The notes under the pieces are model-generated. The model did no database searches and was not told the DNA's origin. It saw only the letters and a list, made by a program, of their open reading frames with translations. The translations under genes and the position numbers were made by a program. Of a stretch of 64,000 nucleotides of DNA, positions 41,021 through 63,813 are shown piece after piece. The DNA comes from an uncultured Syntrophaceae bacterium (GTDB lineage Bacteria > Desulfobacterota > Syntrophia > Syntrophales > UBA2210), in assembly GCA_964540715.1 (NCBI GenBank), contig CAZINZ010000003.1, forward strand, positions 6,751 to 70,750. The letters run 5' to 3'. Numbering within the stretch: the first letter of the stretch is position 1; each line of letters opens with the position of its first letter.

Positions 41021-41040
41021 TTACTTCTCCTTTTTATTTT

Positions 41041-43855: not shown

Positions 43856-44075
43856 TTTATATCCTCCATTTTCTGTTTTATTAACAGGATCGCACCCGTT
43901 TGAAACGCTCGTAACAGGTCTTCATTCCGGCGGAAACCGGAGTCCAGACCACCTGCGACTAAGTCAGCAAAAAGAAATAACTCATAATCAACTTCTTTTC
44001 TGTATGTTACTACATTTTATTGGAATTACCGGCTTTATAAATCTGATACTGTCGTACAAAATCAGGCTTCTTCGC

Positions 44076-45923: not shown

Positions 45924-46100
45924 CTGTCTCCACCCTTCCCTTAAAACGATTTCGCAAAAAACCCCCCATATTCAGCAAGAAAATGAAGGGTTTGTATAAT
46001 ACAGCTTCCCGTATTGCCCTGTTCCTTACAATGACCGGGAAAATGATCCCGCAGATATCCCACAGTGTGCTTTTTCCCCCGACAATCAGACCTTCGGATC

Positions 46101-46907: not shown

Positions 46908-48583
46908 TACTTCTCTTCCCTCTTCTTTTTATCTGTCTCTCTGAGTTCTCTTCTCAGAATCTTGCCGATGGCGCTTTTGGGAAGTTCATCGATAAACTCT
47001 ATTTCTTTCGGAACTTTGTAGGCCGCCAATTTCTCCCTGCAATAGGAGGTGACCTCTTCCTTCGTCAGGGTTTCTCCCGGTTTCACAATAATGTAGGCCT
47101 TGACGGTTTCTCCCCTGTACTCATCGGGAACGCCTATACAGCACGCCTCCATGATTTTGGGGTGGGAAAAGAGCATGTCGTCTATCTCGTTCGGATAGAT
47201 ATTGAAGCCGCTCGCCACAATCAGGTCTTTCTTTCTGTCTGAAATGGTCAGATAACCGTCCTCGTCAAGATATCCGATGTCTCCTATGTAAAACCAGCCG
47301 TCTCTTATCGTCGCTGCGGTTTCTTCCGGCTTCTTGTAATACCCCTTCATAACCTGTGGCCCTTTTATGCAGATCTCACCGGCCTCTCCGATGGGGAGTT
47401 CCTGCGTTCCCGTTTCAAGGTCAACGATCTTCAGATCCGTGTTCGGGAGCGGAATACCCACCGTTCCCCTCTTAACCGTTCCACCCCACGGCGTCATCGT
47501 CGCAAAGGCGGTATTCTCCGTTGCTCCGAACACATCATAGATAATCGCACCATGCAGTTCCTTCAGCTGATTGAGCGTATCTTCGGGAAGCGGGGCGGCC
47601 CCTCCGAAGTATCCCTTTACAAATGAAAGATCCATCTCTCTGAATCTCTTGTCTCTCAGGAGTCCCGTATAAATCGTAGGAACGCCGGGGAGGAATGTCG
47701 GCTTGAACTTCCGGAGCATCTCGATTATCGCGTTTGGCTCCGGCTTCGGAACGAGAATACATGACCATCCGTTCATTATCGGCATGTTCTGACTTACCGA
47801 ATATCCCGCCGAGTGAAATATGGGATAGATTCCCATCAGGCTTTGTTCCGTATCCTTCAGATCGGGAAACCACGCGGCAAACTGCTGCATTATACCGGAT
47901 ATATTCGCGTGGGTCAGCATGGCCCCCTTACTGACACCCGTCGTGCCCCCCGTATAGATCAGGGCTGCCACATCGTCCCAACGGGCCAGATTCTCCACGG
48001 GAGCATCAGAATATCGCTTGATTAAATCCATAAACTGATAGACGCCCTCTTGAGGCTCTACCTTCCTGTGCATACCCTTTTTAACAAACGGAAATAACTG
48101 TTTTATCGGAAAGGGCAGGTAGTCATTTATGTGGCACGTAATGATAGTCTTAATTTTTGTCTTATCCTTCAGTTTAAGCGCGCGCGGAAGGAGAAGATCG
48201 AGGGTCACCAGAACTGTGGCATCGGAATCATTAAGCTGATGTTCCAGCTCACTTTCCGTATAGAGGGGATTGGTCATAGCTGTCACCCCGCCCACCCTGT
48301 ACGTGGCATGATCGGCGATGATAATCTGTGGTATATTGGGAAGCAGCATGGCGACCTTGTCACCTGGTTTTACGCCAAGATCGAGAAACGCCCTGGTAAA
48401 ACGGTTTACCATCTTTTCCAGTGCACCGAAGGTAATCTTCGTTCCCATGTAGATGAATCCTACGCGATCGGGATATTTCTTTGCCGTCCGGGTAAGCGCT
48501 TCGGCCATGGTAACCTTTTCGATATCGATCTCGGCAGGAACCCCCGGCGCATACGACTTGTGCCATAATTTTTCTACAGACAT
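46907..48583 (-). CDS. Long-chain-fatty-acid--CoA ligase (AMP-binding superfamily)
   Basis: 558 aa with the AMP motif IYTGGTTGVSKGAMLTH, then GYLDEDGYLTISDRKKD, and GKILRR at the C-terminus. Confidence 0.9.
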   Translation of the reverse strand: MSVEKLWHKSYAPGVPAEIDIEKVTMAEALTRTAKKYPDRVGFIYMGTKITFGALEKMVNRFTRAFLDLGVKPGDKVAMLLPNIPQIIIADHATYRVGGVTAMTNPLYTESELEHQLNDSDATVLVTLDLLLPRALKLKDKTKIKTIITCHINDYLPFPIKQLFPFVKKGMHRKVEPQEGVYQFMDLIKRYSDAPVENLARWDDVAALIYTGGTTGVSKGAMLTHANISGIMQQFAAWFPDLKDTEQSLMGIYPIFHSAGYSVSQNMPIMNGWSCILVPKPEPNAIIEMLRKFKPTFLPGVPTIYTGLLRDKRFREMDLSFVKGYFGGAAPLPEDTLNQLKELHGAIIYDVFGATENTAFATMTPWGGTVKRGTVGIPLPNTDLKIVDLETGTQELPIGEAGEICIKGPQVMKGYYKKPEETAATIRDGWFYIGDIGYLDEDGYLTISDRKKDLIVASGFNIYPNEIDDMLFSHPKIMEACCIGVPDEYRGETVKAYIIVKPGETLTKEEVTSYCREKLAAYKVPKEIEFIDELPKSAIGKILRRELRETDKKKREEK

Positions 48584-48617
48584 GTTCTCTCATTCCTTTC
48601 TTTGAAGTAATGGCAAC

Positions 48618-50159
48618 CTAATTCTTTGAATATTTCTCTACCAATACGAACTTCGTCACTTTACCCGTCGGTGTCATGGGGAGACTGTCGACAAAGAAGA
48701 CCTTTTTAGGTGCCTTAAAGCGCGCAATATTGTCACGGCTGTAGGCAATAATCTCCTCTTCGGTTAACTCACTCCCGAATGACTTCACGATCACGGCGGC
48801 AACCATCTCTCCCCATGTCTCGTCGGGCAAGCCGATAACGGCACACTGACCGACCGCCGCATGGGACATGAGCATTTCCTCCACGTCAACGGCAAACACA
48901 TTCTGACCGCCACTGATAATCATGTCTTTCACCCGGCCCGAAAGATAGAGGAAACCCTCCTCATCAAACCTTCCCAGGTCCCCCGTGTGGAACCATCCGT
49001 CTTTGAAGGCCTCTTTTGTCTGCTCTTCGTTCTTGTAATACGCTGTCGTCGTGGACACACCGCGGCCGATCACCTCACCCACTTCACCGGCGGGAACGTC
49101 CTTCCCCGAAGCATCGACAATACGAACATCGGACCCGAAATAGAGCGTGCCGACTGATTCGGGCTTTCGTTTTTTGTCTTCGGGTCCCATATTGACAAGG
49201 ACTCCCGTTTCCTGAAGCCCGTAAAATTCATAAATATTGGGACAGAGACGTTCCTTGACCTGGTCCTGAAGAGTTGTGGGAAAGGGTGATGCTGCAAAGA
49301 CAAGGGCCCTGAGTGAGGTCAGGTCATACTTTTCTAGATCGGGGATGGCGAGAATAAAACTGGCCATGGTGGGCACCCAGTTGGATATGGTTATCCTTTC
49401 CTGCTCGATCACTTCCAGTATCTTGACAAGATCGAACTGGAGAATCACATTTCGCGCCCCCGCAAAGAGGCCGATCCCGGCCCAGGCAAACCCCACCCTT
49501 CCGAACATGGGGAAAACGGTAAGGATTGTATCGTCGGATGTCACATCGTGCATGGAGGCCATCACCGGCCCGGCCACGGCATTGTTGTAATGCGTGAGGA
49601 GATAGGCCTTGGGAAGCCCCGTGGTGCCGGAGGTAAGATTGAGATACTGATTATCCTCTTCGGATACCTCCACATCCGGTTCATCCTGCGAAGAACGGGA
49701 CATGAGATCCTCATAGGAAAGGGCGAAATCGGGAACCTCGTCACCCATGCAGATAAACCGCTTGATCCGGGGCATCTTCTCCTTCATTTCCCGGACAATA
49801 TCAGAAAACGACGGGTCGAAGATAAAGGTTTCGGCCTCGCCAAAATTGATCAGCTCGACGATTTCACCCGCCGAGAGACGATAGTTCAAGGGAATACCCA
49901 TGACACCGATCTTGGCCAGCGCAAAATAGGTCTCGGCTATCTCCACACGGTTGTATGTCATAAAGGCGGCGACATCTCCCTTTTTGACTCCGAGTGAGAG
50001 GAGGCCGTTGCCGAGGGCATTACACCGCAGATTAAATTCCCGATAGGTAAGATGTTTACCGGTGGTAACACAGTAGAATGCCTCCCGGTCGCCATACCGT
50101 GCCGCTGCAACCTTTGCATAATTTCCCATCACAAAGCTTCCCGTTGCTCGCTCTTTCAT
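48618..50159 (-). CDS. Acyl-CoA synthetase (AMP-binding superfamily)
   Basis: 513 aa with LTSGTTGLPKAYLLTH, GDLGRFDEEGFLYLSGRVKD and GKVTK. Confidence 0.9.
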   Translation of the reverse strand: MKERATGSFVMGNYAKVAAARYGDREAFYCVTTGKHLTYREFNLRCNALGNGLLSLGVKKGDVAAFMTYNRVEIAETYFALAKIGVMGIPLNYRLSAGEIVELINFGEAETFIFDPSFSDIVREMKEKMPRIKRFICMGDEVPDFALSYEDLMSRSSQDEPDVEVSEEDNQYLNLTSGTTGLPKAYLLTHYNNAVAGPVMASMHDVTSDDTILTVFPMFGRVGFAWAGIGLFAGARNVILQFDLVKILEVIEQERITISNWVPTMASFILAIPDLEKYDLTSLRALVFAASPFPTTLQDQVKERLCPNIYEFYGLQETGVLVNMGPEDKKRKPESVGTLYFGSDVRIVDASGKDVPAGEVGEVIGRGVSTTTAYYKNEEQTKEAFKDGWFHTGDLGRFDEEGFLYLSGRVKDMIISGGQNVFAVDVEEMLMSHAAVGQCAVIGLPDETWGEMVAAVIVKSFGSELTEEEIIAYSRDNIARFKAPKKVFFVDSLPMTPTGKVTKFVLVEKYSKN

Positions 50160-50256
50160 TGTTCCCTCCTTATTATTTCAACCTCTCGTCTCACTGAACA
50201 GGGCTCTACCCCCCTCGTTTGCAGCCGATGCCCATAGTCGCCAACTCCGGATAGGG

Positions 50257-51063
50257 CTAATTTCCTTTGAATATCGGCTCCCTTTTTTCCCACATTGCCG
50301 TCACCGCTTCCATCATATCTTCATTCGGTACGGCAGCAGCATTTTTCTGGGAAATATAGTCAAGTCCCGCATACACTCCGTTATCGCGACTGTAATTGAT
50401 AACTTCCTTCACACCCTGAACGGCCAACGGCGGCAGCTTGGCAAGTTCTTCAGCCAGTTTCTTGACCCCGGCATAGAGACTTTCCTGATCATCAAAGAGT
50501 TTCGTGATAAATCCCATATTCAGGGCTTCTTCACCCCCAAAGTCACGACCTGTAAGGGCAAGTTCCCTGAACAAGCCATGACCGGTAATGTGGGGCATGC
50601 GCTGCAGAGTACCAATATCGGCGATGATACCGATTCTCGTCTCACGGATCGAGAAGATCGCATCGCTCGAGGCATAGCGAATGTCGCAGGCACTCGTCAG
50701 ATCGATTCCGCCGCCGATACAATGGCCGTGAACCGCGGCGATTACCGGTTTCAGACACTTTTCAACAGCAGTCATGCTTTTCTGAAGCAAAGATATCCTT
50801 CTTCTCAGGGATTCACGCCAGGCGGCCGAGCCGTCGCCCATGAGTTCCTGTGCCTCCACAAGATCGAGTCCTGCCGTAAAGCTCTTCCCCTCGGCCTTTA
50901 TAACGATAACCCGCACCTCGGGATCTTCATCGAATTCCCCCATGATCTTCTGCAATTCATCGAAAAACTCGAAGGTCATCGTATTTCGCTCTTTCGGCCG
51001 ATTAAAGGTCAGCCACGCAATGTACCCCTCTTTTTCTATCTTGAACACATCCTCTCGACTCAT
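50257..51063 (-). CDS. Enoyl-CoA hydratase/isomerase family (dienoyl-CoA isomerase-like)
   Basis: 268 aa with WLTFNRPKERNTM, GKSFTAGLDL and VHGHCIGGGIDLTSACD. Confidence 0.85.
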   Translation of the reverse strand: MSREDVFKIEKEGYIAWLTFNRPKERNTMTFEFFDELQKIMGEFDEDPEVRVIVIKAEGKSFTAGLDLVEAQELMGDGSAAWRESLRRRISLLQKSMTAVEKCLKPVIAAVHGHCIGGGIDLTSACDIRYASSDAIFSIRETRIGIIADIGTLQRMPHITGHGLFRELALTGRDFGGEEALNMGFITKLFDDQESLYAGVKKLAEELAKLPPLAVQGVKEVINYSRDNGVYAGLDYISQKNAAAVPNEDMMEAVTAMWEKREPIFKGN

Positions 51064-51084
51064 AGTACACCTCTCTCCTTTCGT

Positions 51085-52950
51085 TTACGACGCGAAACTT
51101 TCGTCGACAATTTCCATAATGGACAGATCTTCGCTCTTGATCGCCTTCGCCGCGGCCTCCGCCGCGGGGAGTACGTTCTTAATAAGATATCGGGCACTCA
51201 ATACCTTACCCTCATAAAACGCGGCATCACTATTGTCGCGAATAAAGGCAACCCAGGCCTCTCTGTCTGACGAATCGACACCTTTTCCCTTCGCCAGTCC
51301 ATCGAGTTTTTCTTTCGCAATGCCAGCCTGCCACAACATCAACCAGGCCGATACAATCTTTCCCATCATCATCAGAAATGGATAGGCGTGGCCCACGGGA
51401 ACCATAAACTTGCCCGCCTTACCGCAATTCGCAAAAAACATTCCCATCTCTCCCAGCAGGTTCACACCAGCCTGGACATCCTCGGCCAGGTCGGAAAGGC
51501 CGGGGACATCTTTGTACTTCGCCACGGTACCGCCCATCTCCATCAGGAGATTCATAAAATAGGCGCCCTTCTTCATACCCAGCTTGCGACCAACCAGATC
51601 GAGGGCCTGAATACCGTTGGCGCCCTCATAAATGGAGGCAATCTTCTCGTCGCGCATGAACTGCTCCACGGGGTACTCTGAACAGTATCCGTACCCTCCG
51701 TACACCTGAATGGCCTGCTCAGTCACCTTGAATCCCACATCGGAGCAGTATGCCTTGACAATGGGCGTGAGTATCTCCAGAAATCCATGCCATTTTTCCT
51801 TCTCGGCTTCGTCCCCGGCAATCACTTCCCTGTCCACCGCGTAGGCGGCGAAGGAGAGCATCGCACGCATGCTGTCCACATTTGCCTTCATCCAGAGGAG
51901 CATACGTCGCACGTCAGGATGCTTGATGATGGGAACTTTGGGTGCATTCGGATCCCTGAGATTTTCGAGGGATGATCCCTGGATTCTTTCCTTCGCGTAC
52001 TGGAGCGCGTGAAGGTATGCGATGGAAGCACTTCCGACTCCCTGCATTCCCGTACCGATTCTCGCCTCGTTCATCATCTGGAACATGACTTTTATGCCCT
52101 TACGTTCCTCGCCGAGGAGTTCAGCGTAACACTCGTCATTGTCTCCAAAATTCATTGTGCCCGTGGGGGCTCCATGAAAGCCCATCTTTTCCTCTATCTT
52201 GGCAACATCGTAGTCGTTGCGTCTCCCAAGTGTGCCATCGTCGTTCACAATATATTTAGGCACGAGGAATATGGAAATCCCCTTCGTTCCGGCAGGATCA
52301 CCCTCGATACGCGCAAGGACTGGATGAATGATGTTTTCCGTCAGATCCTGATCCAGACCGGTGATAAATGACTTCGTCCCCTTAATCTTGAAGGTCCCGT
52401 CCGGTTGCCTGATGGCTTTGGTGCTTATGTTACTCAGGTCGGAACCCGCATTCGGCTCTGTAAGACACATGGTACCGTTCCATTCTCCGGAAACCATTTT
52501 TGACAGATATTTGGCCTTAACTTCTTCCGATCCATATACCTCGATAAGGTGTGCCGCCCCCTGGCCGAGGAATCCGAGGACAAGAAAACCCAGGTTATGG
52601 ATAAACCATTCATTCGCCGACGTTGACATCACGTAGGGAAGTCCCTGTCCCCCGACTTCAGGAGACTTACTCATGGCGCCCCAACCACCCTCGCAAAAAA
52701 GCCTGTAGAGGCGATGGAAGGATTTGGGTACAAATATTTCACCATTTTCGAGCCTGCAGCCTTCCTTGTCAGACTCGACAAGTGTTGGAAACATTTCCTC
52801 GGTGGCAAATTTCTCCGCCTCATTCAAAATCATATCGAAGACATCTCTGGAAAAATCCGCATAGCGAGAATTCTCGCACAGATTCTCGATTTCCAGCATT
52901 TCATAGAGTACAAACCTCTGGTCCCTCGCGTCAATAATGAGATTCGCCAT
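51085..52950 (-). CDS. Long-form acyl-CoA dehydrogenase (paralogue 3)
   Basis: 621 aa with GTMCLTEPNAGSDL, GISIFLVPKY and GYGYCSEYPVEQFMRD. Confidence 0.9.
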   Translation of the reverse strand: MANLIIDARDQRFVLYEMLEIENLCENSRYADFSRDVFDMILNEAEKFATEEMFPTLVESDKEGCRLENGEIFVPKSFHRLYRLFCEGGWGAMSKSPEVGGQGLPYVMSTSANEWFIHNLGFLVLGFLGQGAAHLIEVYGSEEVKAKYLSKMVSGEWNGTMCLTEPNAGSDLSNISTKAIRQPDGTFKIKGTKSFITGLDQDLTENIIHPVLARIEGDPAGTKGISIFLVPKYIVNDDGTLGRRNDYDVAKIEEKMGFHGAPTGTMNFGDNDECYAELLGEERKGIKVMFQMMNEARIGTGMQGVGSASIAYLHALQYAKERIQGSSLENLRDPNAPKVPIIKHPDVRRMLLWMKANVDSMRAMLSFAAYAVDREVIAGDEAEKEKWHGFLEILTPIVKAYCSDVGFKVTEQAIQVYGGYGYCSEYPVEQFMRDEKIASIYEGANGIQALDLVGRKLGMKKGAYFMNLLMEMGGTVAKYKDVPGLSDLAEDVQAGVNLLGEMGMFFANCGKAGKFMVPVGHAYPFLMMMGKIVSAWLMLWQAGIAKEKLDGLAKGKGVDSSDREAWVAFIRDNSDAAFYEGKVLSARYLIKNVLPAAEAAAKAIKSEDLSIMEIVDESFAS

Positions 52951-54808: not shown

Positions 54809-55990
54809 TTAATTAAAAAGTCCCCCCTTTTCGAACTCATCAATATCTCCGTCGGCATAACCCAGTTCGCGAAGAATCTCTTTCGTATGAGTGCCAGCGG
54901 GCACACCGGCTTTCCCATATTCCCGGGGTGTCCCGGAAAATTTTATTGGACTGGCAAGCTGGCGCATCTTCCCCCCCAAGGGAAGGTCAAGCTCCACTAC
55001 CATATTCCGCTTCTTCGTATGAGGATCATTCAACGCCTCGGAGAGTGAAAGCACCGGCTCTACGCAAGCATCCGTGTTATTAAATATGTCCATCCATTCA
55101 CCTCTTGTCTTCGTCAGGATAATATCCCTGACTTCCTGTTTCACCTCTTCGAGATTTTGAGGCACCACACCTGACTCGATCAGGTCGGGCCGACCGATTG
55201 CCTCGCAGAAGGCGGCAAAAAACTGCGGTTCAATGCCACCGAAGCTTATATATTCTCTGTCCTTCGTCTCGTAAAAATCGTACAGGGACCCGCCATTCAG
55301 TAAAAAACTTTCCCGTCCGGGTTCTTCGTTATCTACAAGATAAGCGCCCCCCATCATCGCATTGAAGGCAATCGCTCCATCGGTCATGGAAATATCGATA
55401 TATTGCCCCTTCCCGGTTTCTTTCCTGTAAACTACAGCGGCAAGGATACCTATGATCGAGTTGTATGACCCTGACGCAACGTCGGCAATCTGCATTCCCA
55501 TAAGGCTCGGTCCGCCATTTTTCTTTCCGGAATAGGACATCAACCCCGAACGCGCGAGATAATTGATATCATGCCCCGCCTTCCCGCTCAGGGGACTGTC
55601 CTGCCCGTATCCGGTAATGGAACAGTAAATGATGTCGGGTTTTATCTTTTTGAGGGTTTCATAGTCGAGGCCAAATTTCGCCATGACACCGGGACGAAAC
55701 TGCTCTATCAGGACATCATAATCGGAAATGAGTTGACGAACGATCTGAACAGCGCGGGGGTCCTTGAGATTCAAGGTCATACTGCGCTTGCCCCGCTGCA
55801 TATAGGGTACGGTAAATGAGATATCTGTGCCGGCAAGAAAGGGGGGCGCAAATGCCGCCAGATCAGGCCGGGATCCTGAAGTAACGCGCAGTACATCTGC
55901 CCCGAGGTCGGTAAGATTCATTGTGGCGAACGGTCCCGGAAGCAGTGTCGTAAAATCAAGAATTTTCAACCCTTTTAGCGGCCCTGACAT
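54809..55990 (-). CDS. Alpha-methylacyl-CoA racemase-like enzyme (family III CoA-transferase fold, CaiB/BaiF)
   Basis: 393 aa. LKILDFTTLLPGPFATMNLTDLGADVLRV...GKRSMTLNLK...EQFRPGVM...GYGQDSPLSGKAGHDINYLARSG closely follows the AMACR/MCR signature (AGHDINYLA). Confidence 0.78.
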   Translation of the reverse strand: MSGPLKGLKILDFTTLLPGPFATMNLTDLGADVLRVTSGSRPDLAAFAPPFLAGTDISFTVPYMQRGKRSMTLNLKDPRAVQIVRQLISDYDVLIEQFRPGVMAKFGLDYETLKKIKPDIIYCSITGYGQDSPLSGKAGHDINYLARSGLMSYSGKKNGGPSLMGMQIADVASGSYNSIIGILAAVVYRKETGKGQYIDISMTDGAIAFNAMMGGAYLVDNEEPGRESFLLNGGSLYDFYETKDREYISFGGIEPQFFAAFCEAIGRPDLIESGVVPQNLEEVKQEVRDIILTKTRGEWMDIFNNTDACVEPVLSLSEALNDPHTKKRNMVVELDLPLGGKMRQLASPIKFSGTPREYGKAGVPAGTHTKEILRELGYADGDIDEFEKGGLFN

Positions 55991-56045: not shown

Positions 56046-57188
56046 TTATAAGCCCATGAACTTGGCCGCAATTCCCCTCATTATTTCATTGGTACCAGCG
56101 AATATCCGCGTAACTCTTATATCTCTCCAGGCGCGGGCAATGGGATACTCTTCACAGTAACCATAGCCACCGTAAAGCTGGAGGCAACGGTCGGCAACGC
56201 GATTGGCCATCTCTGTGGTCCAGTACTTCGCCATGGAAACTTCCACCACCACGTTTTTCCCCTCCATATGATCCACGACCAGCTTGTCGACAAAAGTTCT
56301 TCCCAGCTTTATTTCAGTCGCCATCTCCACAATTTCAAACTGACTGTGTTGAAACTTTGAAACAGGCTTGCCAAAAACGGTGCGCTCCTTACAGTAATCG
56401 ATGGTAATGTCGAGCATGTACTCCGCCGCAACAACAGCGCCGATACACACCATAAGGCGTTCCTGCTGCAACTTCTCCATGAGCTGCACGAACCCCGCAC
56501 CTTTCTCGCCGAGACGATTCGCGATGGGAACGCGACAGTCGGTAAAGTAGAGTTCCGCCGTGTCCTGACTGTGCCAGCCGATTTTTTTTATCTGTTTTGC
56601 GTTTTCAAAACCGGGAGTCCCTTCTTCAACGACATAGAGATTAAGGGCACTGTACGCGCTCTTTTCCTTCGGATCTCGCGCTGCAACAATACAGATTCCG
56701 CAGTTGATACCGTTACTGATAAATGTCTTCTGCCCATTGATAATAACATCATCACCGTCTTCTACCGCTGTGGTCTTTATCGCGGCCAGGTCGCTCCCCG
56801 TGTTAGGCTCAGTCATGGCAACTGCGCTAATGATATCGCCTGATATACATCCTGGGAGATATTTTTTCTTCAGTTCCTCAGAGCCGAAGGCAGTGATATA
56901 GGGAACGACAACATCACTGTGAAGGGCGGTAGAGAGTCCGGAATGGTTGGTTCGGGTCATCTCTTCAGTCATAATAACAGAGTAAAGAAAATCGGCGCCG
57001 AGTCCGCCATACTCCTCCGACACGTCCATACACAGGAAACCCTGATCACCCAGTTTCTTCCAGGCGCTTTTGGGGGTAATGCCCGCTTCTTCCCATTCTT
57101 CTATATAGGGAACAACCTCTTTTTCGAGATATCTCCGTACACTCTCTCTGAATATCCTATGTTCCTCAGAATATTGGATGATTTCCAT
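56046..57188 (-). CDS. Acyl-CoA dehydrogenase (classical ~380 aa), tandem paralogue 1
   Basis: 380 aa with AVAMTEPNTGSDLA, GYGYCEEYPIARAWRDIRV and a catalytic Glu context (IFAGTNEI). Confidence 0.93.
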   Translation of the reverse strand: MEIIQYSEEHRIFRESVRRYLEKEVVPYIEEWEEAGITPKSAWKKLGDQGFLCMDVSEEYGGLGADFLYSVIMTEEMTRTNHSGLSTALHSDVVVPYITAFGSEELKKKYLPGCISGDIISAVAMTEPNTGSDLAAIKTTAVEDGDDVIINGQKTFISNGINCGICIVAARDPKEKSAYSALNLYVVEEGTPGFENAKQIKKIGWHSQDTAELYFTDCRVPIANRLGEKGAGFVQLMEKLQQERLMVCIGAVVAAEYMLDITIDYCKERTVFGKPVSKFQHSQFEIVEMATEIKLGRTFVDKLVVDHMEGKNVVVEVSMAKYWTTEMANRVADRCLQLYGGYGYCEEYPIARAWRDIRVTRIFAGTNEIMRGIAAKFMGL

Positions 57189-57235
57189 TAATTGTCTCCT
57201 CCTTTTGTTATGTTAAGCATAAACCACATCTGGAA

Positions 57236-57340
57236 GGGTTAAGGTTTAAGGTCTGAGATTCAGGGGTCAACTGTGAACCATTTTTAACCGGTAACTGTGA
57301 ACCGTGAACCGTCTTTAATCTTCGACCCCTTGAACCCTTC
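57236..57340 (+). repeat. 105-nt heptamer-periodic element (15 consecutive 7-mers), homologous to 31945-32070
   Basis: gggttaa ggtttaa ggtctga gattcag gggtcaa ctgtgaa ccatttt taaccgg taactgt gaaccgt gaaccgt ... It lies in the spacer between the two ACAD paralogues. Confidence 0.9.
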
Positions 57341-57376
57341 TGATATTAATTATGGAACGGTATGAGACTACTAACC

Positions 57377-58519
57377 TTATAAGCCCATAAACTTGGCCGC
57401 AATTCCCTTCATGACTTCATTGCTTCCCGCAAATATACGCGAAACTCTGATATCCCGCCAGGCACGGGCAATAGGATACTCTTCGCAATAGCCATAGCCT
57501 CCGAAGAGCTGGAGACAACGGTCGGCAACTCTATTGGCCATCTCCGTGGTCCAGTATTTCGCCATGGAAACTTCCACTACCACGTTTTTCCCCTCAATAT
57601 GATCCACGATCAGTTTGTCCTTAAAGGTTCTTCCCAGCTTTATTTCCGTTGCCATCTCCACGATCTCGAATTGACTGTGTTGAAACTTTGAAACAGGCTT
57701 GCCAAAAACACTGCGTTCCTTACAGTAGTCGATGGTAATATCAAGCATGTATTCCGCCGCGGAAACGGCGCTGATAGCCACCATAAGGCGTTCCTGCTGC
57801 AACTTTTCCATGAGATGCACGAAACCCGTGCCTTTTGCGCCAAGGCGGTTTGCAATGGGAACTCGACAGTCCGTAAAATAGAGCTCCGCTGTGTCCTGGC
57901 TGTGCAATCCGATTTTTTTGATCTGTTTTCCCTTTTCAAAGCCGGGAGTACCTTCTTCAACAGCGTAGAGGTCAATGGCATTATAGGGATTTTCCACCTT
58001 CGGGTCCCGGGCTGCAACAATACAGATTCCGCAGTTGATACCGTTACTGATAAAGGTCTTCTGACCGTTTATAATAACATCATCACCGTCTTCCACCGCT
58101 GTGGCCTTTATCGCGGCCAAGTCGCTCCCCGTGTTAGGTTCAGTCATGGCAACGGCGGAGATAATATCGCCTGATATACACCCCGGGAGATATTTTTTCT
58201 TCAGTTCCTCAGAGCCGTAAGCGGTAATATAAGGAACTACAATATCACTATGGAGGAAAGCGCAAAATCCCCCGTGATTCGTCCTCATCATTTCTTCAGT
58301 CATAATAACAGAGTAAAGAAAATCGGCGCCGAGTCCGCCATACTCCTCCGACACGTCCATACACAGGAAACCCTGATCACCTAACTTTTTCCATGCACTC
58401 CTGGGCACAATACCAGACTCTTCCCACTCTTCCACATGCGGAATAACCTCTTTTTCGAGATATTTTCTCACACTCTCCCTGAATATCCTGTGCTCCTCAG
58501 AATATTGGATGATTTCCAT
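57377..58519 (-). CDS. Acyl-CoA dehydrogenase (classical ~380 aa), tandem paralogue 2
   Basis: 380 aa. It is roughly 85-90% identical by eye to 56046-57188, with long stretches of identical DNA. Confidence 0.93.
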   Translation of the reverse strand: MEIIQYSEEHRIFRESVRKYLEKEVIPHVEEWEESGIVPRSAWKKLGDQGFLCMDVSEEYGGLGADFLYSVIMTEEMMRTNHGGFCAFLHSDIVVPYITAYGSEELKKKYLPGCISGDIISAVAMTEPNTGSDLAAIKATAVEDGDDVIINGQKTFISNGINCGICIVAARDPKVENPYNAIDLYAVEEGTPGFEKGKQIKKIGLHSQDTAELYFTDCRVPIANRLGAKGTGFVHLMEKLQQERLMVAISAVSAAEYMLDITIDYCKERSVFGKPVSKFQHSQFEIVEMATEIKLGRTFKDKLIVDHIEGKNVVVEVSMAKYWTTEMANRVADRCLQLFGGYGYCEEYPIARAWRDIRVSRIFAGSNEVMKGIAAKFMGL

Positions 58520-58547: not shown

Positions 58548-59186
58548 CTATCTTGCCTTTCCCTCATTTTGGGCGAAGGGAGGGATATAAATAAACTTCA
58601 AAGTCTCTTTAACCATGGTGATATATTCTTTCTTCCGGAGATTGACCATCGGCATAAAGAAATTCGCACCGGATATAAAGCCATATATCGAATTCATAAT
58701 AGTCAGGATCTCCAGCATTGAACGGGATGAGGCTGATTTTCCGTCTCTGCTGAGCCCCATAGAGCGCACGATATCAGAAATGGCTTCCGGAACTATGAAA
58801 TCGAGGCCTTCCCTGTCTCGAGTACGACCGAAATAGCGAAACAAGATAAGATTTGGTATCTCGGGATGGCCGAACAGATAATCTGTCAACTGGTCGATGG
58901 ATATCGCAACTCTCTCCCCGAGAGAGCGGCCACGTATTGCTTTTTCCACCCGTCTGAGTTTCTGCCTGAGATCATGGTTGATATCCAGTATAACGGCCTC
59001 ATAAAGGTCCTTCTTACCCCCCCAGTGGTAGTGGAGTGTGGAAACATCAATTCCGACCTCCGTGGCAATCATCCTTGTGGTTGTGCCGTGAAAGCCATAT
59101 TCACCAAATATCCTGCGTGCCGCAGTTAAAATTCTTGCCTTCATGGACTCAGGGGCTCTGCGGGCCTTATCCAGCGGGGTCTCCAT
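58548..59186 (-). CDS. TetR/AcrR family transcriptional regulator
   Basis: 212 aa with the TetR HTH sequence ILTAARRIFGEYGFHGTTTRMIATEVGIDVSTLHYHW. Confidence 0.9.
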   Translation of the reverse strand: METPLDKARRAPESMKARILTAARRIFGEYGFHGTTTRMIATEVGIDVSTLHYHWGGKKDLYEAVILDINHDLRQKLRRVEKAIRGRSLGERVAISIDQLTDYLFGHPEIPNLILFRYFGRTRDREGLDFIVPEAISDIVRSMGLSRDGKSASSRSMLEILTIMNSIYGFISGANFFMPMVNLRKKEYITMVKETLKFIYIPPFAQNEGKAR

Positions 59187-59205
59187 GATTTATTATGCCT
59201 TTAAT

Positions 59206-59235
59206 AACGGGCCGGGCGAAAACGCCCGGCCCGTT
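59206..59235 (-). terminator. Perfect 13-bp stem / 4-nt loop hairpin (aacgggccgggcg aaaa cgcccggcccgtt) after the SDR gene
   Basis: Read directly from the sequence. It lies 19 nt downstream of the SDR stop and is followed on the minus strand by ttattaaagg. It may also overlap the tetR promoter/operator. Confidence 0.6.
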
Positions 59236-59253
59236 TATCCCATAAACAGCTCT

Positions 59254-60162
59254 TTAGCTCAGCAACGGGCCCAGCTCACCGAACATATCAAAAACCTGAT
59301 TAAAAAATTTCGGATTTTCGAGGCTCGTGATCTTTTCCCAGTTTTCCATAATCTCCTCGGGAGTGGGAATTTTATCACCATCCGAGAGTACCGCGCCCGG
59401 ACCGGTCATTATCGCGCTTCTGCTGAAATAACCGAGAGCTGCATTGATCATAACTCCGGAGTCCTCACACTGCTCTGAACACAGGTAGAGTATCAGAGGA
59501 GAGATTAATTCCGGTTTTAATTTGGCAAAAAGGTCGGGCGGCAGAACATCTTCCGTAAGCCGTGAAGCGGCAACAGGAATCAGGACATTGGTCTTGATAT
59601 TGTACTTGGCTCCCTCAAGCTTCAACACATTGGTAAGCCCGGCAATACCCGCCTTGGCCGCAGAGTAATTCGCCTGACCAAAGTTACCGAACAGACCGGC
59701 ACCAGAAGTCGTCATCACGATTCTTCCATATCCGTTTTCACGCATATTGATAAAGGCCGGTTTCGTAACACAGTAAGCCCCCTTCAAATGAACCCCCACA
59801 ACGGCATCCCAGTTCTCCTCTTCCAGTTTATGAAAGGCACTGTCTCTCAGAATGCCGGCGTTATTCACGAGGATATCGACCTTGCCGAATGCGTCGATGG
59901 CTGTCTGGACTATACCCTTTCCCCCTTCAACAGTCGCCACATTGTCATAGTTCGGTACCGCTTCACCGCCGAGGGCCTTTATCTCTTCAACCACTTTATC
60001 CGCCGCCGCGTCACTCGACCCGACTCCGTCCCTTGTACCGCCAAGGTCGTTTACTACCACCTTCGCCCCCCTCTTCGCGAATTCAAGGGCATGGCTTCGT
60101 CCAAGGCCGGCGCCAGCGCCGGTCACAATAGCAACTCTGCCTGTAAAATCAATCTTCGACAT
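59254..60162 (-). CDS. Short-chain dehydrogenase/reductase resembling the (3R)-hydroxyacyl-CoA dehydrogenase domain of MFE-2
   Basis: 302 aa. VAIVTGAGAGLGRSHALEFAKRGAKVVVNDLGG...VDILVNNAGILRD...YSAAKAG is the MFE-2/HSD17B4-type pattern, including the C-terminal extension. Confidence 0.8.
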   Translation of the reverse strand: MSKIDFTGRVAIVTGAGAGLGRSHALEFAKRGAKVVVNDLGGTRDGVGSSDAAADKVVEEIKALGGEAVPNYDNVATVEGGKGIVQTAIDAFGKVDILVNNAGILRDSAFHKLEEENWDAVVGVHLKGAYCVTKPAFINMRENGYGRIVMTTSGAGLFGNFGQANYSAAKAGIAGLTNVLKLEGAKYNIKTNVLIPVAASRLTEDVLPPDLFAKLKPELISPLILYLCSEQCEDSGVMINAALGYFSRSAIMTGPGAVLSDGDKIPTPEEIMENWEKITSLENPKFFNQVFDMFGELGPLLS

Positions 60163-60213
60163 ACTCAGATCCTCCTTTATCGTTTTTATTTAAATGGGTC
60201 TGATCTATTTTTT

Positions 60214-60651
60214 CTATTTGATTGGGAGAGACGCCTCGAAATGACCAGTTATCTTGACGTCACCATTCTCATCCTTTGCAATCACCTCGCAGGAAACAAT
60301 GTTTTCCCCGTCCTCAGCACGCTTATCCGTCACGGCACCGCTGACGGTAATTGTGCTGTTTTTTTGAGTCATACCGGCAAACCGAACACCGAATTTTTTC
60401 AGATACTTCTGAGGAAACCAAGCCGTAATTGCCTGACCGACAATGCCCATAACCAGCATACCATGCGATATAACACCGTTTTTCATACCCACCGCCATGG
60501 CAAACTCATCGTCATTATGAAGAGGGTTAAAGTCACCGGACGCCCCTGCATACATAACGAATTGAAGCTTCTGGAGAGGGCCCTTTACCAGCTCGGGCAT
60601 GACGTCGCCCACATTGACGTCTTCAAAATACATTTGCTCTGCCATCATCAA
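60214..60651 (-). CDS. MaoC-like (R)-specific enoyl-CoA hydratase, C-terminal-type hot-dog subunit
   Basis: 145 aa with YAGASGDFNPLHNDDEFA (hydratase-2 motif context). Confidence 0.85.
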   Translation of the reverse strand: MMMAEQMYFEDVNVGDVMPELVKGPLQKLQFVMYAGASGDFNPLHNDDEFAMAVGMKNGVISHGMLVMGIVGQAITAWFPQKYLKKFGVRFAGMTQKNSTITVSGAVTDKRAEDGENIVSCEVIAKDENGDVKITGHFEASLPIK

Positions 60652-60656
60652 CCCCC

Positions 60657-61106
60657 CTATTTTCTTTCAATGAGCAGCGATCTGGCTTTTGCAACCTTTT
60701 CGCCTCTCTGATTTGTATAGAGTACTTCCATGGAAATCAGATCCATCTTGGAACCGGATTTGCTGGTTTTCTCTTCCATCTTCGTTATCTTCGGGGTACC
60801 GGTAATCACGTCCCCGGGATACATCAGCTGATAGTATTCGTACTCTTCCTCACCATGGAGCACCATCATAAAATTGATCTTCAGGTCGCCAATAATAGCG
60901 GGCATCTGATCACACCACATCATGGGAACGGTTAAAAACGTCGGCGTAGCCGGGATATCTTTGTAGCCTGCCTGTATCGCGGCATCCTTGTCGAGATAGA
61001 CCGGGTTAGGATCTCCTATTGCCTTCGCCATTTCCCTTATCTTGCCTCTTTCCACCTCCCACGTAATGGGAGCATACTCTACACCGGTTTTTGATAAATC
61101 AGCCAT
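60657..61106 (-). CDS. MaoC_dehydrat_N-type hot-dog subunit (partner of the preceding hydratase)
   Basis: 149 aa with ITWEVERGKIREMAKAIGDPNPVY. There is a 5-nt gap to the next gene, giving a heteromeric hydratase layout like ChsH1/ChsH2 or HadAB. Confidence 0.8.
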   Translation of the reverse strand: MADLSKTGVEYAPITWEVERGKIREMAKAIGDPNPVYLDKDAAIQAGYKDIPATPTFLTVPMMWCDQMPAIIGDLKINFMMVLHGEEEYEYYQLMYPGDVITGTPKITKMEEKTSKSGSKMDLISMEVLYTNQRGEKVAKARSLLIERK

Positions 61107-61139
61107 AAGGTTACCTCCTTTTTTAAAGGTTTCTACATC

Positions 61140-62348
61140 TTACCCATCATATTTTCCGATAATGCCTATACTGCAGACATTCAGCATCGGAAATCCACCG
61201 AGATTATGGGTCAGTCCAAACTTCGGATCTTTCAGTTGCCGGTCGCCAGCCCTTCCGTGAAGCTGCAGATACATTTCGTAGAGCATGCGAAGTCCCGATG
61301 CACCGATGGGATGACCAAAACATTTCAGGCCACCGTCGACCTGGCAGGGAATCTTGCCGTCCATATCGTAGAAACCGTCCATAATATCCTTGGGCGCCTG
61401 ACCACGCTCGGAGATGTGCAGGTCTTCCATGGTAACCAGCTCCGTAATGGAGAAACAGTCATGAACTTCCATCATGCTGATCTCTTCCCTTGGATTGGTA
61501 ATGCCCGCCTCTTTGTAGGCTTCGGTACTTGCCTTGGTCGTTGTCACAAAATGGGCACCATCCCAGTCACTGTATCCCATCTCGGTCCCGTTACTGAGTG
61601 ACAACTGGAGGGCCTTTACCGATACCAGATCTTTTTTGCCCAGGGACTTGGCTATTTCAGGGGTTGTTACGATGGCAGCGGCGGAACCGTCGCTGACACC
61701 ACAACAGTCAAAGAGTCCCAGGGGATATGCAATTTGCGGTGAATTGAGTACCTGCTCCTCTGTCACGGCTTTTCTCAGATGTGCCTTCGGATTCAGGACT
61801 CCATTCGCATGACTCTTCACCGATACATGCGCCATGGCCCTTTTGACATCACTCATATCAAGACCGTATTTCGCGGCATAGCCCGTGGCCAGCATGGCAA
61901 AGCATCCCGGTGCCGTCGCATTCGGAAAGTATAAATAGTTTCTCGTCCCCATGGCGCTGCTGAACTCGGGCAGACCGCCATATCCGATGTCTTTTAGTTT
62001 TTCTACACCGATGGCAAGAGCGATATCACAAGCGCCGGAGGCCACTGCGTACACCGCACCCCGAAAGGCCTCCGTACCACTGGCACAAAAGTTTTCCACG
62101 CGGGTCACCGCGATGTTGGGAAGGCGCAACGCAAGCGATGCAGGAAGGGCACTCTTTCCTACATCCACCTCATCGAAACAGGATCCCAGCCATGCGGCCC
62201 CAATCTGTTTTCTTTCGATTCCCGCGTCTGCGAGACACTCTTCGAAAGCTTCAACCATCAACTCTTCGGGACCGTCATTCCATCGTTCACCGAATTTCGA
62301 ACATCCCATGCCTATAATAGCTACTTTATCTCGAATTCCTGTTGCCAT
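61140..62348 (-). CDS. SCP-x / nonspecific lipid-transfer-protein-type thiolase
   Basis: The start is set at MATGIRDKVAIIGMG, preceded by GGAGGAGG. Motifs include NFCASGTEAF (active-site Cys), EVHDCFS and GHPIGASG. Confidence 0.88.
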   Translation of the reverse strand: MATGIRDKVAIIGMGCSKFGERWNDGPEELMVEAFEECLADAGIERKQIGAAWLGSCFDEVDVGKSALPASLALRLPNIAVTRVENFCASGTEAFRGAVYAVASGACDIALAIGVEKLKDIGYGGLPEFSSAMGTRNYLYFPNATAPGCFAMLATGYAAKYGLDMSDVKRAMAHVSVKSHANGVLNPKAHLRKAVTEEQVLNSPQIAYPLGLFDCCGVSDGSAAAIVTTPEIAKSLGKKDLVSVKALQLSLSNGTEMGYSDWDGAHFVTTTKASTEAYKEAGITNPREEISMMEVHDCFSITELVTMEDLHISERGQAPKDIMDGFYDMDGKIPCQVDGGLKCFGHPIGASGLRMLYEMYLQLHGRAGDRQLKDPKFGLTHNLGGFPMLNVCSIGIIGKYDG

Positions 62349-62349
62349 G

Positions 62350-63813
62350 TTATTCACCTCCTCCAATCTGCGGAACAGCCTTCCAGAAGTATCCCGTAAA
62401 GCCTCTCTCTTTATCGTAATTTCTCTTTCTGAAAGACATCTTCGCCGGCATACCCACCTTTACCTGATCGAGACTGCAATCGGTAAAGTCGACAAAGGCC
62501 TTGCCGCCACCTTCAAATTCGACCAAACCGTATATTGCGGGTGGATCCACCGATGCTGAAAGCATGTCGCCAGTGTACATACCTACTTTACAGCCCACAT
62601 TGGAGAATTCGTAGTCTTCGAAATCATGGGATGACCAGCAGTCGGGATTCACGCACACAGGCATCGTAGGAAATTGAGGCGTGCCGCATTTGTTGCATTT
62701 TGAACCGACCATGCCGAGCACCATCTTGCGGTCTCTCCACAGGGCCGTCAGTGACGTGTTCACAGATTGCTCGCCTCTTATTCCCAGATCGGCTATTATC
62801 AGGTCTCTGAACTTGGTGAACTTCTGATAACTGGACAGCTCAACCCTGTTTGCAAGCGACCCCTTAATACCCACCGGAGCCTTGTAGTCTTTAATCTTGT
62901 CGGTCACTTCGAATGCCAGGACATCACACCCCTGACCAAAACTGGCGACCAGTATCTTGTCTCCCGGCTTCGCTCCTTCCAGTGCCGTAACCAACATAAC
63001 AAAGGGATGCGCCGTTCCGGTATCACCGCATACGTTATGCATATTATCCTGCACTTTTTCAGCATCAACACCCAGTTTCTTCGCGATATCGCGATGGGTC
63101 CTACTGAAATAACAGGGATATACCACCTTGTCGAATTCCTCGATCTTCATTCCTGTCTTTTTCAGGAAACCGGCGACTGCCTGAGGAATAATTTTCCCGT
63201 ATCCCTCATCTCTCATCCACCGCTCTTCCCAGCCATAATCAAAGGTCTTGCCCTGGCCTCTGTAATGATCTACAAAGTCGCAGTTTACCGAATAGCTCCC
63301 CTTGAATTCCGCTATCACATCATCCTTGCCAAACAGAAGAGCCGCCGCGCCATCACCGTAAAACATTTCAAACATGGTGGCCATTTTCGTTGTACGCAGA
63401 TCGGTCGCAGTAACGAGAACGCTGTCTTTGTTCCCCGACTCGATAGCATCCAGAGCCGAGAGGGCAGCCGTTGTTGCCGACTTTGTACAGGAAGTGAAAT
63501 CGGCGTTTGTCACATCCTCTTCTCTCATGTTAAGTGCCGCGGCAACGATACCCGAATTAAGTCTGTCCGCAAAGGGCAGTGTTGTTGACGCAAGATACAG
63601 GGCGTCAAGCGCCTTTCTGTCCTTGTTCGTCATACAATCACGAGCTGCCGCAACCGCCATACTGACGGCGTCTTCGTCCCAGTTGGCCACCGATTTTTCC
63701 CCACCGGCAACTGCCATAATGACGGGAAAATACCAGGCCATGTTCTGGACGACAACCATCCTGCTGAGCCTGTAGCGAGGGATATACCCCCCATAGGATG
63801 TAATGCCTACCAT
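62350..63813 (-). CDS. HMG-CoA synthase-like (thiolase-fold) domain fused to a C-terminal DUF35 OB-fold/zinc-ribbon domain
   Basis: The start is at MVGITSYGGYIPRYRL, preceded by GGAGAGGAGG. The N-domain has GGEKSVANWDEDAVSMA and FTSCTKSAT. The C-domain has GSKCNKCGTPQFPTMPVCVNPDC...GLVEFEGGGKAFVDF...VKVGMPAKMSFRK, which is typical DUF35. Confidence 0.8.
   Translation of the reverse strand: MVGITSYGGYIPRYRLSRMVVVQNMAWYFPVIMAVAGGEKSVANWDEDAVSMAVAAARDCMTNKDRKALDALYLASTTLPFADRLNSGIVAAALNMREEDVTNADFTSCTKSATTAALSALDAIESGNKDSVLVTATDLRTTKMATMFEMFYGDGAAALLFGKDDVIAEFKGSYSVNCDFVDHYRGQGKTFDYGWEERWMRDEGYGKIIPQAVAGFLKKTGMKIEEFDKVVYPCYFSRTHRDIAKKLGVDAEKVQDNMHNVCGDTGTAHPFVMLVTALEGAKPGDKILVASFGQGCDVLAFEVTDKIKDYKAPVGIKGSLANRVELSSYQKFTKFRDLIIADLGIRGEQSVNTSLTALWRDRKMVLGMVGSKCNKCGTPQFPTMPVCVNPDCWSSHDFEDYEFSNVGCKVGMYTGDMLSASVDPPAIYGLVEFEGGGKAFVDFTDCSLDQVKVGMPAKMSFRKRNYDKERGFTGYFWKAVPQIGGGE

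Follow-up and report, generated by a model that had tools for sequence, protein, structure and literature searches.

The last 4.6 kb of a 64,000-nucleotide stretch of DNA from an uncultured Syntrophaceae bacterium (assembly GCA_964540715.1, contig CAZINZ010000003.1; this whole stretch is hereafter called the window) are occupied by five co-directional genes on the minus strand (63813-59254, from reading frames with Pfam and NCBIfam). The first encodes P0001, in which a domain resembling the synthase of 3-hydroxy-3-methylglutaryl-CoA (HMG-CoA), HMGS, is fused to a DUF35 module, and the second encodes a thiolase, P0002. We consider it likely that P0001 is a pseudo-enzyme that acts as a scaffold for P0002, the working thiolase of an (R)-specific beta-oxidation module. 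P0001 would consist of an HMGS/PhlA-like thiolase-fold domain devoid of the catalytic Glu, His, and Asn, covalently joined to a zinc-ribbon/OB adaptor of the DUF35 type. Its role would be structural, i.e., to bind the translationally coupled thiolase, to keep it soluble and assembled, and probably to supply one wall of the CoA-binding chamber. Arranged in this way, the two proteins would resemble the ACAT/HMGS-DUF35 pair of Pseudomonas fluorescens and three assemblies of solved structure, thiolase/HMGS/DUF35, PhlACB, and MucABC. In the corresponding cycle, a MaoC_N/MaoC hydratase-2 heterodimer would hydrate, an MFE-2-type (3R)-hydroxyacyl-CoA dehydrogenase would oxidise, and P0002 would thiolyse; neighbouring acyl-CoA dehydrogenases (ACADs), acyl-CoA ligases, and a racemase similar to AMACR would feed the cycle, and TetR regulators would control it. 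The features of the pair are the following (window coordinates):

62350..63813, minus strand: HMGS-like::DUF35 fusion P0001, 487 aa, predicted non-catalytic thiolase partner (Pfam, NCBIfam, PDB alignment, AlphaFold2 model, Foldseek)
62779..63813, minus strand: HMGS/PhlA-like thiolase-fold domain, about residues 1-345, with T77, C109, P233, and D264 (alignment to 6esq_I)
63487..63489, minus strand: Cys109 codon TGT, the sole kept member of the HMGS E-C-H-N tetrad (alignment to 6esq_I)
62371..62742, minus strand: DUF35 module, about residues 358-481, rubredoxin-like zinc ribbon and OB fold (PF12172, PF01796)
62357..62364, minus strand: GGAGGAGG, predicted ribosome-binding site of the thiolase gene, within the 3' end of the fusion gene (read in the sequence)
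61140..62348, minus strand: SCPx/archaeal-ACAT-type thiolase P0002, 402 aa (NF004810, PDB matches, motifs)

The fusion gene starts with the ATG at 63813, behind GGAGAGGAGG, and the protein begins MVGITSYGGYIP. Its homologues begin MIGITSYGGYIP, which matches this ATG-started form. The list of open reading frames included a 535-aa frame with a TTG start; we rejected it as an upstream extension of the fusion, since the homologues use the ATG instead. The TAA stop of the fusion (62352-62350) is followed by a single base and by the ATG of the thiolase gene at 62348, with GGAGGAGG at 62364-62357, 8-15 nt 5' of this ATG. Direct reading of the sequence thus confirms the one-nucleotide gap and the ribosome-binding site given in a preliminary description of the locus.

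The fused protein and its HMGS-like domain

The covalent fusion of DUF35 to the HMGS-like domain, already part of that description, is borne out by more than 5,600 homologues. A word-indexed search, in which 8,000 candidates were scored, returned 5,681 of them (E <= 0.001); the 120 best listed are mostly of about 485 aa, have 58-92% identity, and include several longer forms. An exhaustive search of cluster representatives at 50% identity gave 568 matches at E <= 1e-30. Most of the best 150 of these are full-length fusions, down to 32% identity (127 have at least 440 aa), the remainder being partial sequences of shorter length together with a few that are longer. At the same threshold, the fusion has a match in 133 of 401 evenly sampled genomes of the window's phylum (87 of 255 genera), and most of the matches listed span residues 1 to about 483. 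With 91-92% identity, the nearest loci come from metagenome-assembled genomes (MAGs) labelled Syntrophaceae, Syntrophales, or 'Deltaproteobacteria'. Because the single open frame recurs in dozens of independent assemblies, the fusion does not result from a missed stop or a frameshift, an artefact that had been envisaged at the outset.

A residue-level phmmer alignment with the archaeal HMGS of M. thermolithotrophicus (6esq_I) places T77, C109, P233, and D264 of P0001 opposite the catalytic tetrad E82, C114, H238, and N270. The corresponding motifs, in the fusion and in the archaeal enzyme, are ASTT and GSES, SCTK and ACKA, YPCYF and FHQPN, and GDTG and GNTY. The stretch FTSCTKSAT, picked out by eye in the preliminary description as the context of the catalytic Cys, does align with Cys114. 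The H-x-P motif that had not been found at its expected place is indeed absent from it, KVVYPCYF standing in place of FHQPN. The alignment thus gives T77, C109, and P233 where a complete canonical triad would have Glu, Cys, and His. The early suspicion that catalysis was altered was well founded: His is changed to Pro, and Glu and Asn are also replaced, by Thr and Asp. These substitutions are found in nearly all of the 121 close homologues (Thr at the Glu position in 119, Pro at the His position in 121, and Asp or Glu at the Asn position in 120). Neither Glu nor His occupies its catalytic position in any of them, or in any of the 127 diverse representatives (clustering at 50%). With Glu, His, and Asn lost, the HMGS-like domain of P0001 is most likely catalytically dead.

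The position of Cys109 is variable. It is occupied by Cys in 61, Ser in 55, Ala in 3, and Thr in 2 of the close homologues, and by Ser in 105 and Cys in 6 of the 127 representatives, some of which have Ala, Gly, or Thr. On a tree of the close clade, made without the trait column, there are at least 7 switches between Cys and Ser, versus about 40 for shuffled labels. Because the two residues vary across homologues and switch repeatedly on the tree, the retained Cys109 looks like a tolerated variant and not like a conserved nucleophile.

The best PDB matches of the fusion by sequence are the inactive PhlA subunits (1e-35), followed by the archaeal HMGS 6esq_I (9e-29). The fusion and PhlA have in common a GDTG.A.P stretch and the Asp at the Asn position. 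The AlphaFold2 model of the fusion is a single rigid body (pLDDT, the predicted local distance difference test, of 94.4; predicted TM score, pTM, of 0.94). Its top Foldseek matches are PhlA, the archaeal HMGS 6et9_I (TM 0.92 by target, root-mean-square deviation 2.0 Å), and MucA, and its similarity to 6et9_I identifies an HMGS-type thiolase fold. The DUF35 part is recognised by PF12172 and PF01796 above their cut-offs, matches 6esq_E (2.5e-13 with phmmer), and has beta strands at 369-481 in the model. The zinc-ribbon cysteines (C373, C376, C387, and C392) are kept in 113-122 of the 127 representatives.

Such a well-folded domain, so near to an active HMGS, might also be an enzyme with altered chemistry, in which Cys109 would accept an acyl group, for example when a branched intermediate with a 3-hydroxy or 3-oxo group undergoes a retro-Claisen, retro-aldol, or acyl-transfer reaction. 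This Cys lies exactly at the nucleophile position of a conserved elbow and is shared by the 61 close homologues mentioned above. However, the general base Glu and the His are missing from all 121 and all 127 sequences, the Cys position is mostly Ser in the representatives and switches repeatedly in the close clade, and neither an archaeal quadruple mutant of the tetrad nor natural proteins lacking it yield HMG-CoA (PMC12960953). We therefore regard an altered enzyme as quite improbable. The retro-aldol or retro-Claisen step first proposed for this domain is unsupported, given the family-wide absence of Glu and His and the variable Cys109 position, and the absence of these two residues across the fused family likewise leaves its use as a second active site for channeling unsupported.

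The top NCBIfam names for the fusion are HMG-CoA synthase models, and public annotations of its homologues use this name. Nevertheless, the probability that it is a genuine HMG-CoA synthase of a mevalonate pathway is close to nil. It scores under the HMGS equivalog cut-offs (NF003274, 210.5 vs. 244; TIGR00748, 147 vs. 353; TIGR01835, 62 vs. 360), and three of the four catalytic residues are gone. The preliminary description had left room for a use of the gene in this pathway, and we checked the genome of the window (97% complete, 2.52 Mb in 128 contigs), of which the fusion is the only HMGS-like gene. HMG-CoA reductase (PF00368) has no match in this 97% complete genome, whereas the control genomes did match, and IspH of the methylerythritol phosphate (MEP) route is encoded. 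Hence, the fusion does not belong to a mevalonate pathway.

The thiolase partner and the comparison with known assemblies

P0002 scores 689 bits against NF004810 (cut-off 403). It has full-length PDB matches to an acetyl-CoA acetyltransferase (7yvy_A, 9e-58), the thiolase chain of the archaeal complex (6esq_A, 8e-56), BbsB (7pxp_C, 9e-46), and SCP2-thiolases (5e-40). It carries C88 (CASG), H296-D-C-F, and G345-H-P, motifs that are kept in 40-41 of 41 orthologues. These intact motifs suggest that P0002 is active, and it would be the sole catalyst of the pair.

The thiolase gene is directly downstream of the fusion gene in all 41 related loci that extend far enough. The same holds, in otherwise different surroundings, for three out of three distant members of the family, at 33-39% identity. 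The pair of dead HMGS::DUF35 and thiolase is the invariant unit, because the thiolase directly follows the fusion even in these other contexts, and it appears to be reused for the cleavage of quite different 3-oxoacyl-CoAs. Two of the distant contexts have Rieske oxygenases and one has acetone-carboxylase-like genes. Among the loci with distant members are L077 (2452-9608) and L076 (1-13849), at 33-37% identity, and the neighbours are either acetone/acetophenone-carboxylase-like genes (hydantoinase A/B and Acetone_carb_G) or Rieske oxygenases, ABM monooxygenases, and a CoA ligase.

The window's genome also has five stand-alone DUF35 genes, on contigs C6 (around 55.6 and 58.4 kb) and C14 (around 29.5, 36.7, and 37.2 kb; loci L050-L054). 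At least four of them adjoin paralogues of the SCPx-type thiolase (27-37% identical to P0002), with ACADs adjacent. Within one small genome, different thiolases thus have different partners, either plain DUF35 or dead-HMGS::DUF35.

The closest known counterpart of the window pair is PfACAT/HMGS-DUF35 of P. fluorescens, a system of the same kind, together with some 1,000 'minimal' bacterial HMGS-ACAT-DUF35 loci; we compared the pair with it by its published description (PMC12960953, Nat Commun 2026). In bacteria, that study counts 1,030 loci where genes for HMGS, ACAT, and DUF35 occur together, and 1,001 of these are without secondary-metabolism neighbours. In both cases, the HMGS-like domain and DUF35 are in one polypeptide, the tetrad is degenerate, the adjacent thiolase has Cys, HDxF, and GHx, and there is no context of polyketide synthases (PKS) or nonribosomal peptide synthetases (NRPS). 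The Pseudomonas complex forms neither HMG-CoA nor acetoacetyl-CoA but thiolytically cleaves the latter, and a mutant of the HDxF His loses this cleavage (PMC12960953); the assayed activity fits the catabolic setting of the window. The two systems differ in the tetrad, since E-C-H-N is entirely lost in the P. fluorescens protein, whereas P0001 has lost three of the four residues and keeps the nucleophile Cys, which is variable within the clade. They also differ in their context. The P. fluorescens locus was termed an 'evolutionary intermediate' with no defined pathway, whereas the five genes that include the window pair make up a conserved (R)-specific beta-oxidation module, accompanied by ACADs and a racemase-like gene. 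It is this clear pathway context, together with a Cys that is retained but variable, that sets the window system apart. From the homology of P0001 and P0002 to the chains of solved complexes, and from the Pseudomonas results (PMC12960953), we infer that the two proteins form a complex and that this complex cleaves thiolytically without making HMG-CoA.

All three parts of the archaeal thiolase/HMGS/DUF35 complex are matched in the window (by 6esq_A, 6esq_I, and 6esq_E, with the E-values given above), and the HMGS fold is nearly identical. The archaeal complex is made of three separate proteins, and its active HMGS receives acetoacetyl-CoA that is channeled to mevalonate synthesis. In contrast, HMGS and DUF35 are fused in the window, the HMGS site is dead, no mevalonate pathway was found in the genome, and the setting is one of catabolism. 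The best reading remains one suggested in the preliminary description, a two-protein form of this assembly that works in the cleavage direction.

PhlACB of P. protegens (5M3K, 5MG5, and 9SKH) and MucABC of S. macacae (9VBO and 9VBT) also combine an inactive HMGS-like subunit (PhlA or MucA), a DUF35 bridge, and an SCPx-like catalytic subunit. Among solved structures, PhlA/MucA stands closest to the N-terminal domain of the fusion. The window pair could accordingly be imagined as a CoA-dependent C-acyltransferase (Friedel-Crafts acylase) of secondary metabolism, all the more so as PhlA is the best PDB match by sequence, is among the best by fold, and shares the Asp and the GDTG.A.P stretch. We find this very improbable. 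The catalytic subunits PhlC and MucB, which acylate phenols or tetramic acids, lack HDxF (PMC12960953), whereas P0002 and 41 of 41 orthologues keep HDCF. P0002 matches PhlC over its C-terminal third only (1e-21), versus the full-length matches to thiolases. Finally, the three subunits of PhlACB and MucABC are separate proteins encoded in PKS/NRPS clusters, whereas no PKS/NRPS genes are near the window pair, whose neighbours are beta-oxidation enzymes.

In BbsAB (benzoylsuccinyl-CoA thiolase), as in ChsH2-Ltp2 and Shy-Sal, an SCPx-type enzyme of thiolase fold requires DUF35 as its adaptor, and the pathway is catabolic and includes MaoC and a short-chain dehydrogenase/reductase (SDR). However, BbsA, the partner of BbsB, is a stand-alone DUF35 protein with no HMGS-like domain. 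ChsH2-Ltp2 and Shy-Sal, which likewise have no HMGS-like domain, join DUF35 to a MaoC hydratase and pair it with an aldolase. The likeness to ChsH-Ltp2 drawn in the preliminary description therefore holds for the idea of a DUF35 adaptor but not for the architecture or the partner. We rejected an Ltp2-type aldolase as the identity of P0002, which keeps the thiolase Cys, HDCF, and GHP and whose DUF35 partner is fused to an HMGS-like domain instead of MaoC. The MaoC subunits of the module have 145-149 aa, are without DUF35 (Pfam), and match ChsH1 and ChsH2 weakly (about 2e-6).

The beta-oxidation module and its neighbourhood

The five genes are, in order, those of the HMGS-like::DUF35 fusion, the SCPx/archaeal-type thiolase, MaoC_N, MaoC, and the MFE-2-type SDR, followed by a GC-rich hairpin and tetR. 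This is the order originally described, at the same coordinates and with all genes on the minus strand. Pfam and NCBIfam support all gene calls (ACP_syn_III_C, zf-ChsH2, and OB_ChsH2_C for the fusion, then Thiolase_N/C_1, FAS1_DH_region/MFE-2_hydrat-2_N, MaoC_dehydratas, adh_short, and TetR_N). The features beyond the pair are:

60657..61106, minus strand: MaoC_N/HadA-like hot-dog subunit, probably the non-catalytic half (Pfam, NCBIfam, motif GDPNPVY)
60214..60651, minus strand: MaoC/HadB-like subunit, predicted catalytic subunit of an (R)-specific enoyl-CoA hydratase (Pfam, NCBIfam, motif GDFNPLH)
59254..60162, minus strand: MFE-2-type (3R)-hydroxyacyl-CoA dehydrogenase (SDR), 302 aa (PDB matches, Pfam adh_short)
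59187..59253, minus strand: spacer with a perfect 13-bp GC-rich hairpin (folding)
58548..59186, minus strand: TetR-family regulator (Pfam TetR_N)
56046..58519, minus strand: two tandem ACAD genes, context for the first step of the cycle (Pfam, NCBIfam)
54809..55990, minus strand: family III CoA-transferase-fold protein with alpha-methylacyl-CoA-racemase signatures (alignments to 1x74, 2g04, and 9br6)

The SDR matches the Candida enzyme 2et6_A (7e-134) and the human HSD17B4 1zbq_A (2e-93), as well as 3oml_A and 1gz6_A. The hydratase-2 motif with its His (GDFNPLH) is found only in the MaoC subunit, the MaoC_N subunit reading GDPNPVY, with no His. The two are thus probably a heterodimer with one catalytic subunit, in which MaoC_N is the non-catalytic half. 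The 'peroxisome-type' character originally ascribed to the locus stands, as the MFE-2-type dehydrogenase, the hydratase-2, and the SCPx-type thiolase have all been identified. The enzyme families predict an MFE-2/SCPx-type module with (R)-stereospecificity.

We compared the context of 47 related loci. The order fusion-thiolase-MaoC_N-MaoC-SDR is intact in 30 of them; most of the others end inside the module, and two (L030 and L045) differ. The position of tetR is the same in 13. An ACAD and a family III CoA-transferase-fold gene are found either just upstream of the module or downstream of it after tetR, as in the window. The CoA-transferase-fold protein of the window has GHDINY and IEPQF, as do MCR (1x74) and Far (2g04) of M. 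tuberculosis, whereas its top overall PDB match, SUGCT (9br6), has neither. All 27 homologues from the related loci carry GHD(I/V)NY, which suggests that the protein is an AMACR-like racemase. Because of this racemase signature, the ACADs nearby, and the SCP2 fusions of sister clades described below, acyl-CoAs that are 2-methyl-branched or bulky in another way are the probable substrates.

The rest of the 36-64 kb region contains five ACADs, three crotonase-type hydratases, and three acyl-CoA ligases. The cluster therefore has both (S)-type and (R)-type hydration routes. Within it, on the minus strand at 36450-52950, are three long ACADs (605-621 aa) with an Acyl-CoA_dh_C extension, the three crotonase-type hydratases, and two more acyl-CoA ligases. 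The ACAD, acyl-CoA ligase, and racemase-like neighbours bear out the catabolic context in which the fusion was originally placed. The module and its neighbours are the bacterial counterpart of peroxisomal branched-chain beta-oxidation (AMACR, MFE-2/HSD17B4, and SCPx), with which they share the enzyme families and the predicted stereochemistry, SCP2 being carried by the sister clades. They differ from it in being bacterial, soluble, and encoded by separate genes, in having ACADs instead of acyl-CoA oxidases, and in the dead-HMGS::DUF35 partner of the thiolase, which peroxisomes lack. We found nothing specific in the literature on this module in syntrophs or anaerobic hydrocarbon degraders.

The hairpin between the SDR gene and tetR is a perfect 13-bp, GC-rich stem with a UUUU loop (-31.7 kcal/mol, z -4.7) and spans most of the spacer. 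It had been described as a terminator, of which the GC-rich hairpin is confirmed; folding showed no proper U-tract after the SDR gene, and a consensus terminator scan did not call it. It may be a terminator/attenuator, an RNA stabiliser, or a TetR operator or other protein-binding palindrome, rather than a classical terminator. A second TetR gene lies just past the end of the window, about 500 nt upstream of the fusion and on the same strand (L002:567-1205, minus strand, i.e., around 64316-64954 in window numbering), so that two TetR regulators bracket the operon. The spacer between it and the fusion has two AT-rich inverted repeats (L001:3267-3305 and 3140-3175). Twenty public 'salt lake metagenome' runs (2017-2019) contain 92-100% of the sampled words of 59254-63813; fourteen may be source samples, and the others may share the campaign. 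No RNA run is among the public sequencing runs listed as containing this region.

Fusions in sister clades and the direction of the pathway

In a sister clade (55-60% identity), the fused protein (HMGS-like domain abbreviated HMGSL) is extended to HMGSL::DUF35::SDR (about 790-815 aa), HMGSL::DUF35::SDR::SCP2 (about 905-915 aa), or HMGSL::DUF35::SCP2-SCP2 (722 aa). The operon order in 20 loci of this clade is TetR, a frame containing SDR::SCP2, HMGSL::DUF35::SDR::SCP2, thiolase, and ACAD. Of three upstream frames run through Pfam, two are hydratase-2::SDR(::SCP2), i.e., a permuted MFE-2, and one is SDR::SCP2 only. The natural fusions show that the scaffold is tethered to SDR and SCP2, and, together with the gene neighbours, they tie it to the (R)-specific beta-oxidation of lipophilic substrates. 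The permuted bacterial MFE-2 (hydratase-2 N and MaoC, SDR, and SCP2; about 700 aa) is seen at L056:8561-10663 and L066:9391-11142, both on the minus strand, with equivalents in L057-L075. It is directly upstream of the 905-915-aa HMGSL::DUF35::SDR::SCP2, and each such operon thus has two similar SDR modules. Fusions of DUF35 to thiolase-superfamily, SDR, SCP2, and hot-dog domains were listed as early as 2010 (PMC2954200).

A more speculative extension, which we put forward tentatively and think doubtful, is that the dead HMGS::DUF35 is the hub of a soluble bacterial 'peroxisome-type' metabolon. It would hold the MFE-2-type dehydrogenase, and perhaps the hydratase and SCP2-like carriers, beside the thiolase, and pass on bulky or 2-methyl-branched intermediates without releasing them. 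This is motivated by Sulfolobus acidocaldarius, where KT/DUF35 co-elutes with ACR and MaoC-HCD as one assembly and complexing raised the efficiency of condensation 60-fold (10.1101/2024.07.05.601840). The Rosetta-stone fusions favour the co-localisation of the scaffold with SDR/SCP2. In the AlphaFold2 model of a natural 909-aa HMGSL::DUF35::SDR::SCP2, the domains are confident, pTM is 0.57, and the linkers (486-492 and 791-803) are under pLDDT 50; a fixed docking geometry of SDR or SCP2 on the scaffold is not supported by this model. The complex prediction of P0001 with the MFE-2-type SDR gave no support (ipSAE interface score of 0.00 in both runs, controls not folded) and weighs neither for nor against the metabolon. 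If a metabolon exists, sister clades have made it covalent, with HMGSL::DUF35::SDR::SCP2 beside hydratase2::SDR::SCP2. Such an assembly would correspond, in the catabolic direction, to the KT/DUF35/ACR/MaoC fatty-acid synthase of archaea, and in syntrophs it might be reversible.

The operon could also run in the synthetic direction and be to bacteria what the ACP-independent fatty-acid synthase complex is to archaea. In that case, the thiolase/DUF35 would condense acetyl-CoA onto acyl-CoA, the (R)-specific SDR and MaoC would process the product, and the dead HMGS would stabilise the condensing state. The closest relatives of the locus are Syntrophales/Syntrophaceae MAGs, and many CoA pathways of syntrophs operate near equilibrium; an NMO/FabK-like gene is also found about 19 kb away in the same cluster. 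The list of components matches that of the Sulfolobus complex, in which a MaoC dehydratase and an (R)-specific SDR associate with the KT/DUF35 pair, i.e., the same four activities in a DUF35-centred assembly known from experiment (10.1101/2024.07.05.601840). That complex differs from the window module in being biosynthetic and NADPH-dependent, in including an enoyl-CoA reductase, and in having no HMGS-like domain. The conserved neighbours in the related loci are instead ACADs, acyl-CoA ligases, the AMACR-like racemase, and TetR, with no enoyl-CoA reductase among them. Furthermore, the only fused HMGS-DUF35/ACAT pair that has been assayed cleaved acetoacetyl-CoA and did not condense acetyl-CoA (PMC12960953), and the SCP2 and MFE-2-type fusions of sister clades are hallmarks of degradative peroxisome-type enzymes. 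In view of the Sulfolobus complex, we keep the synthetic direction at a low probability.

Some observations weigh against P0001 being a scaffold for thiolytic cleavage of branched substrates. The same set of enzymes is a biosynthetic complex in Sulfolobus (10.1101/2024.07.05.601840), and the direction of cleavage is deduced from context only. The neighbourhoods of stand-alone DUF35 and thiolase in the same genome have no HMGS-like domain. Cys109 is kept here and in about half of the close clade, and a residual acyl-accepting role is possible. Finally, the idea of a branched-chain substrate rests on the motif-level similarity of one neighbour to racemases.

The principle of a fused, inactive HMGS-DUF35 beside a thiolase was published in 2026, and hints from domain architecture date from 2010, so the gain is incremental. 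The P0001/P0002 pair is a tractable two-protein system in which to ask what a pseudo-HMGS domain adds over a stand-alone DUF35. Thousands of such proteins are publicly annotated as 'HMG-CoA synthase', a name from which one would wrongly conclude that Syntrophales and other Thermodesulfobacteriota have a mevalonate pathway; their identification as dead scaffolds corrects such metabolic reconstructions. About one in three of the genomes sampled from the phylum has a match to the fusion at E <= 1e-30. Taken with its fused SDR/SCP2 variants, the conserved five-gene module suggests that an anaerobic route for the degradation of branched or bulky acyl-CoAs, built like peroxisomal beta-oxidation, is widespread.

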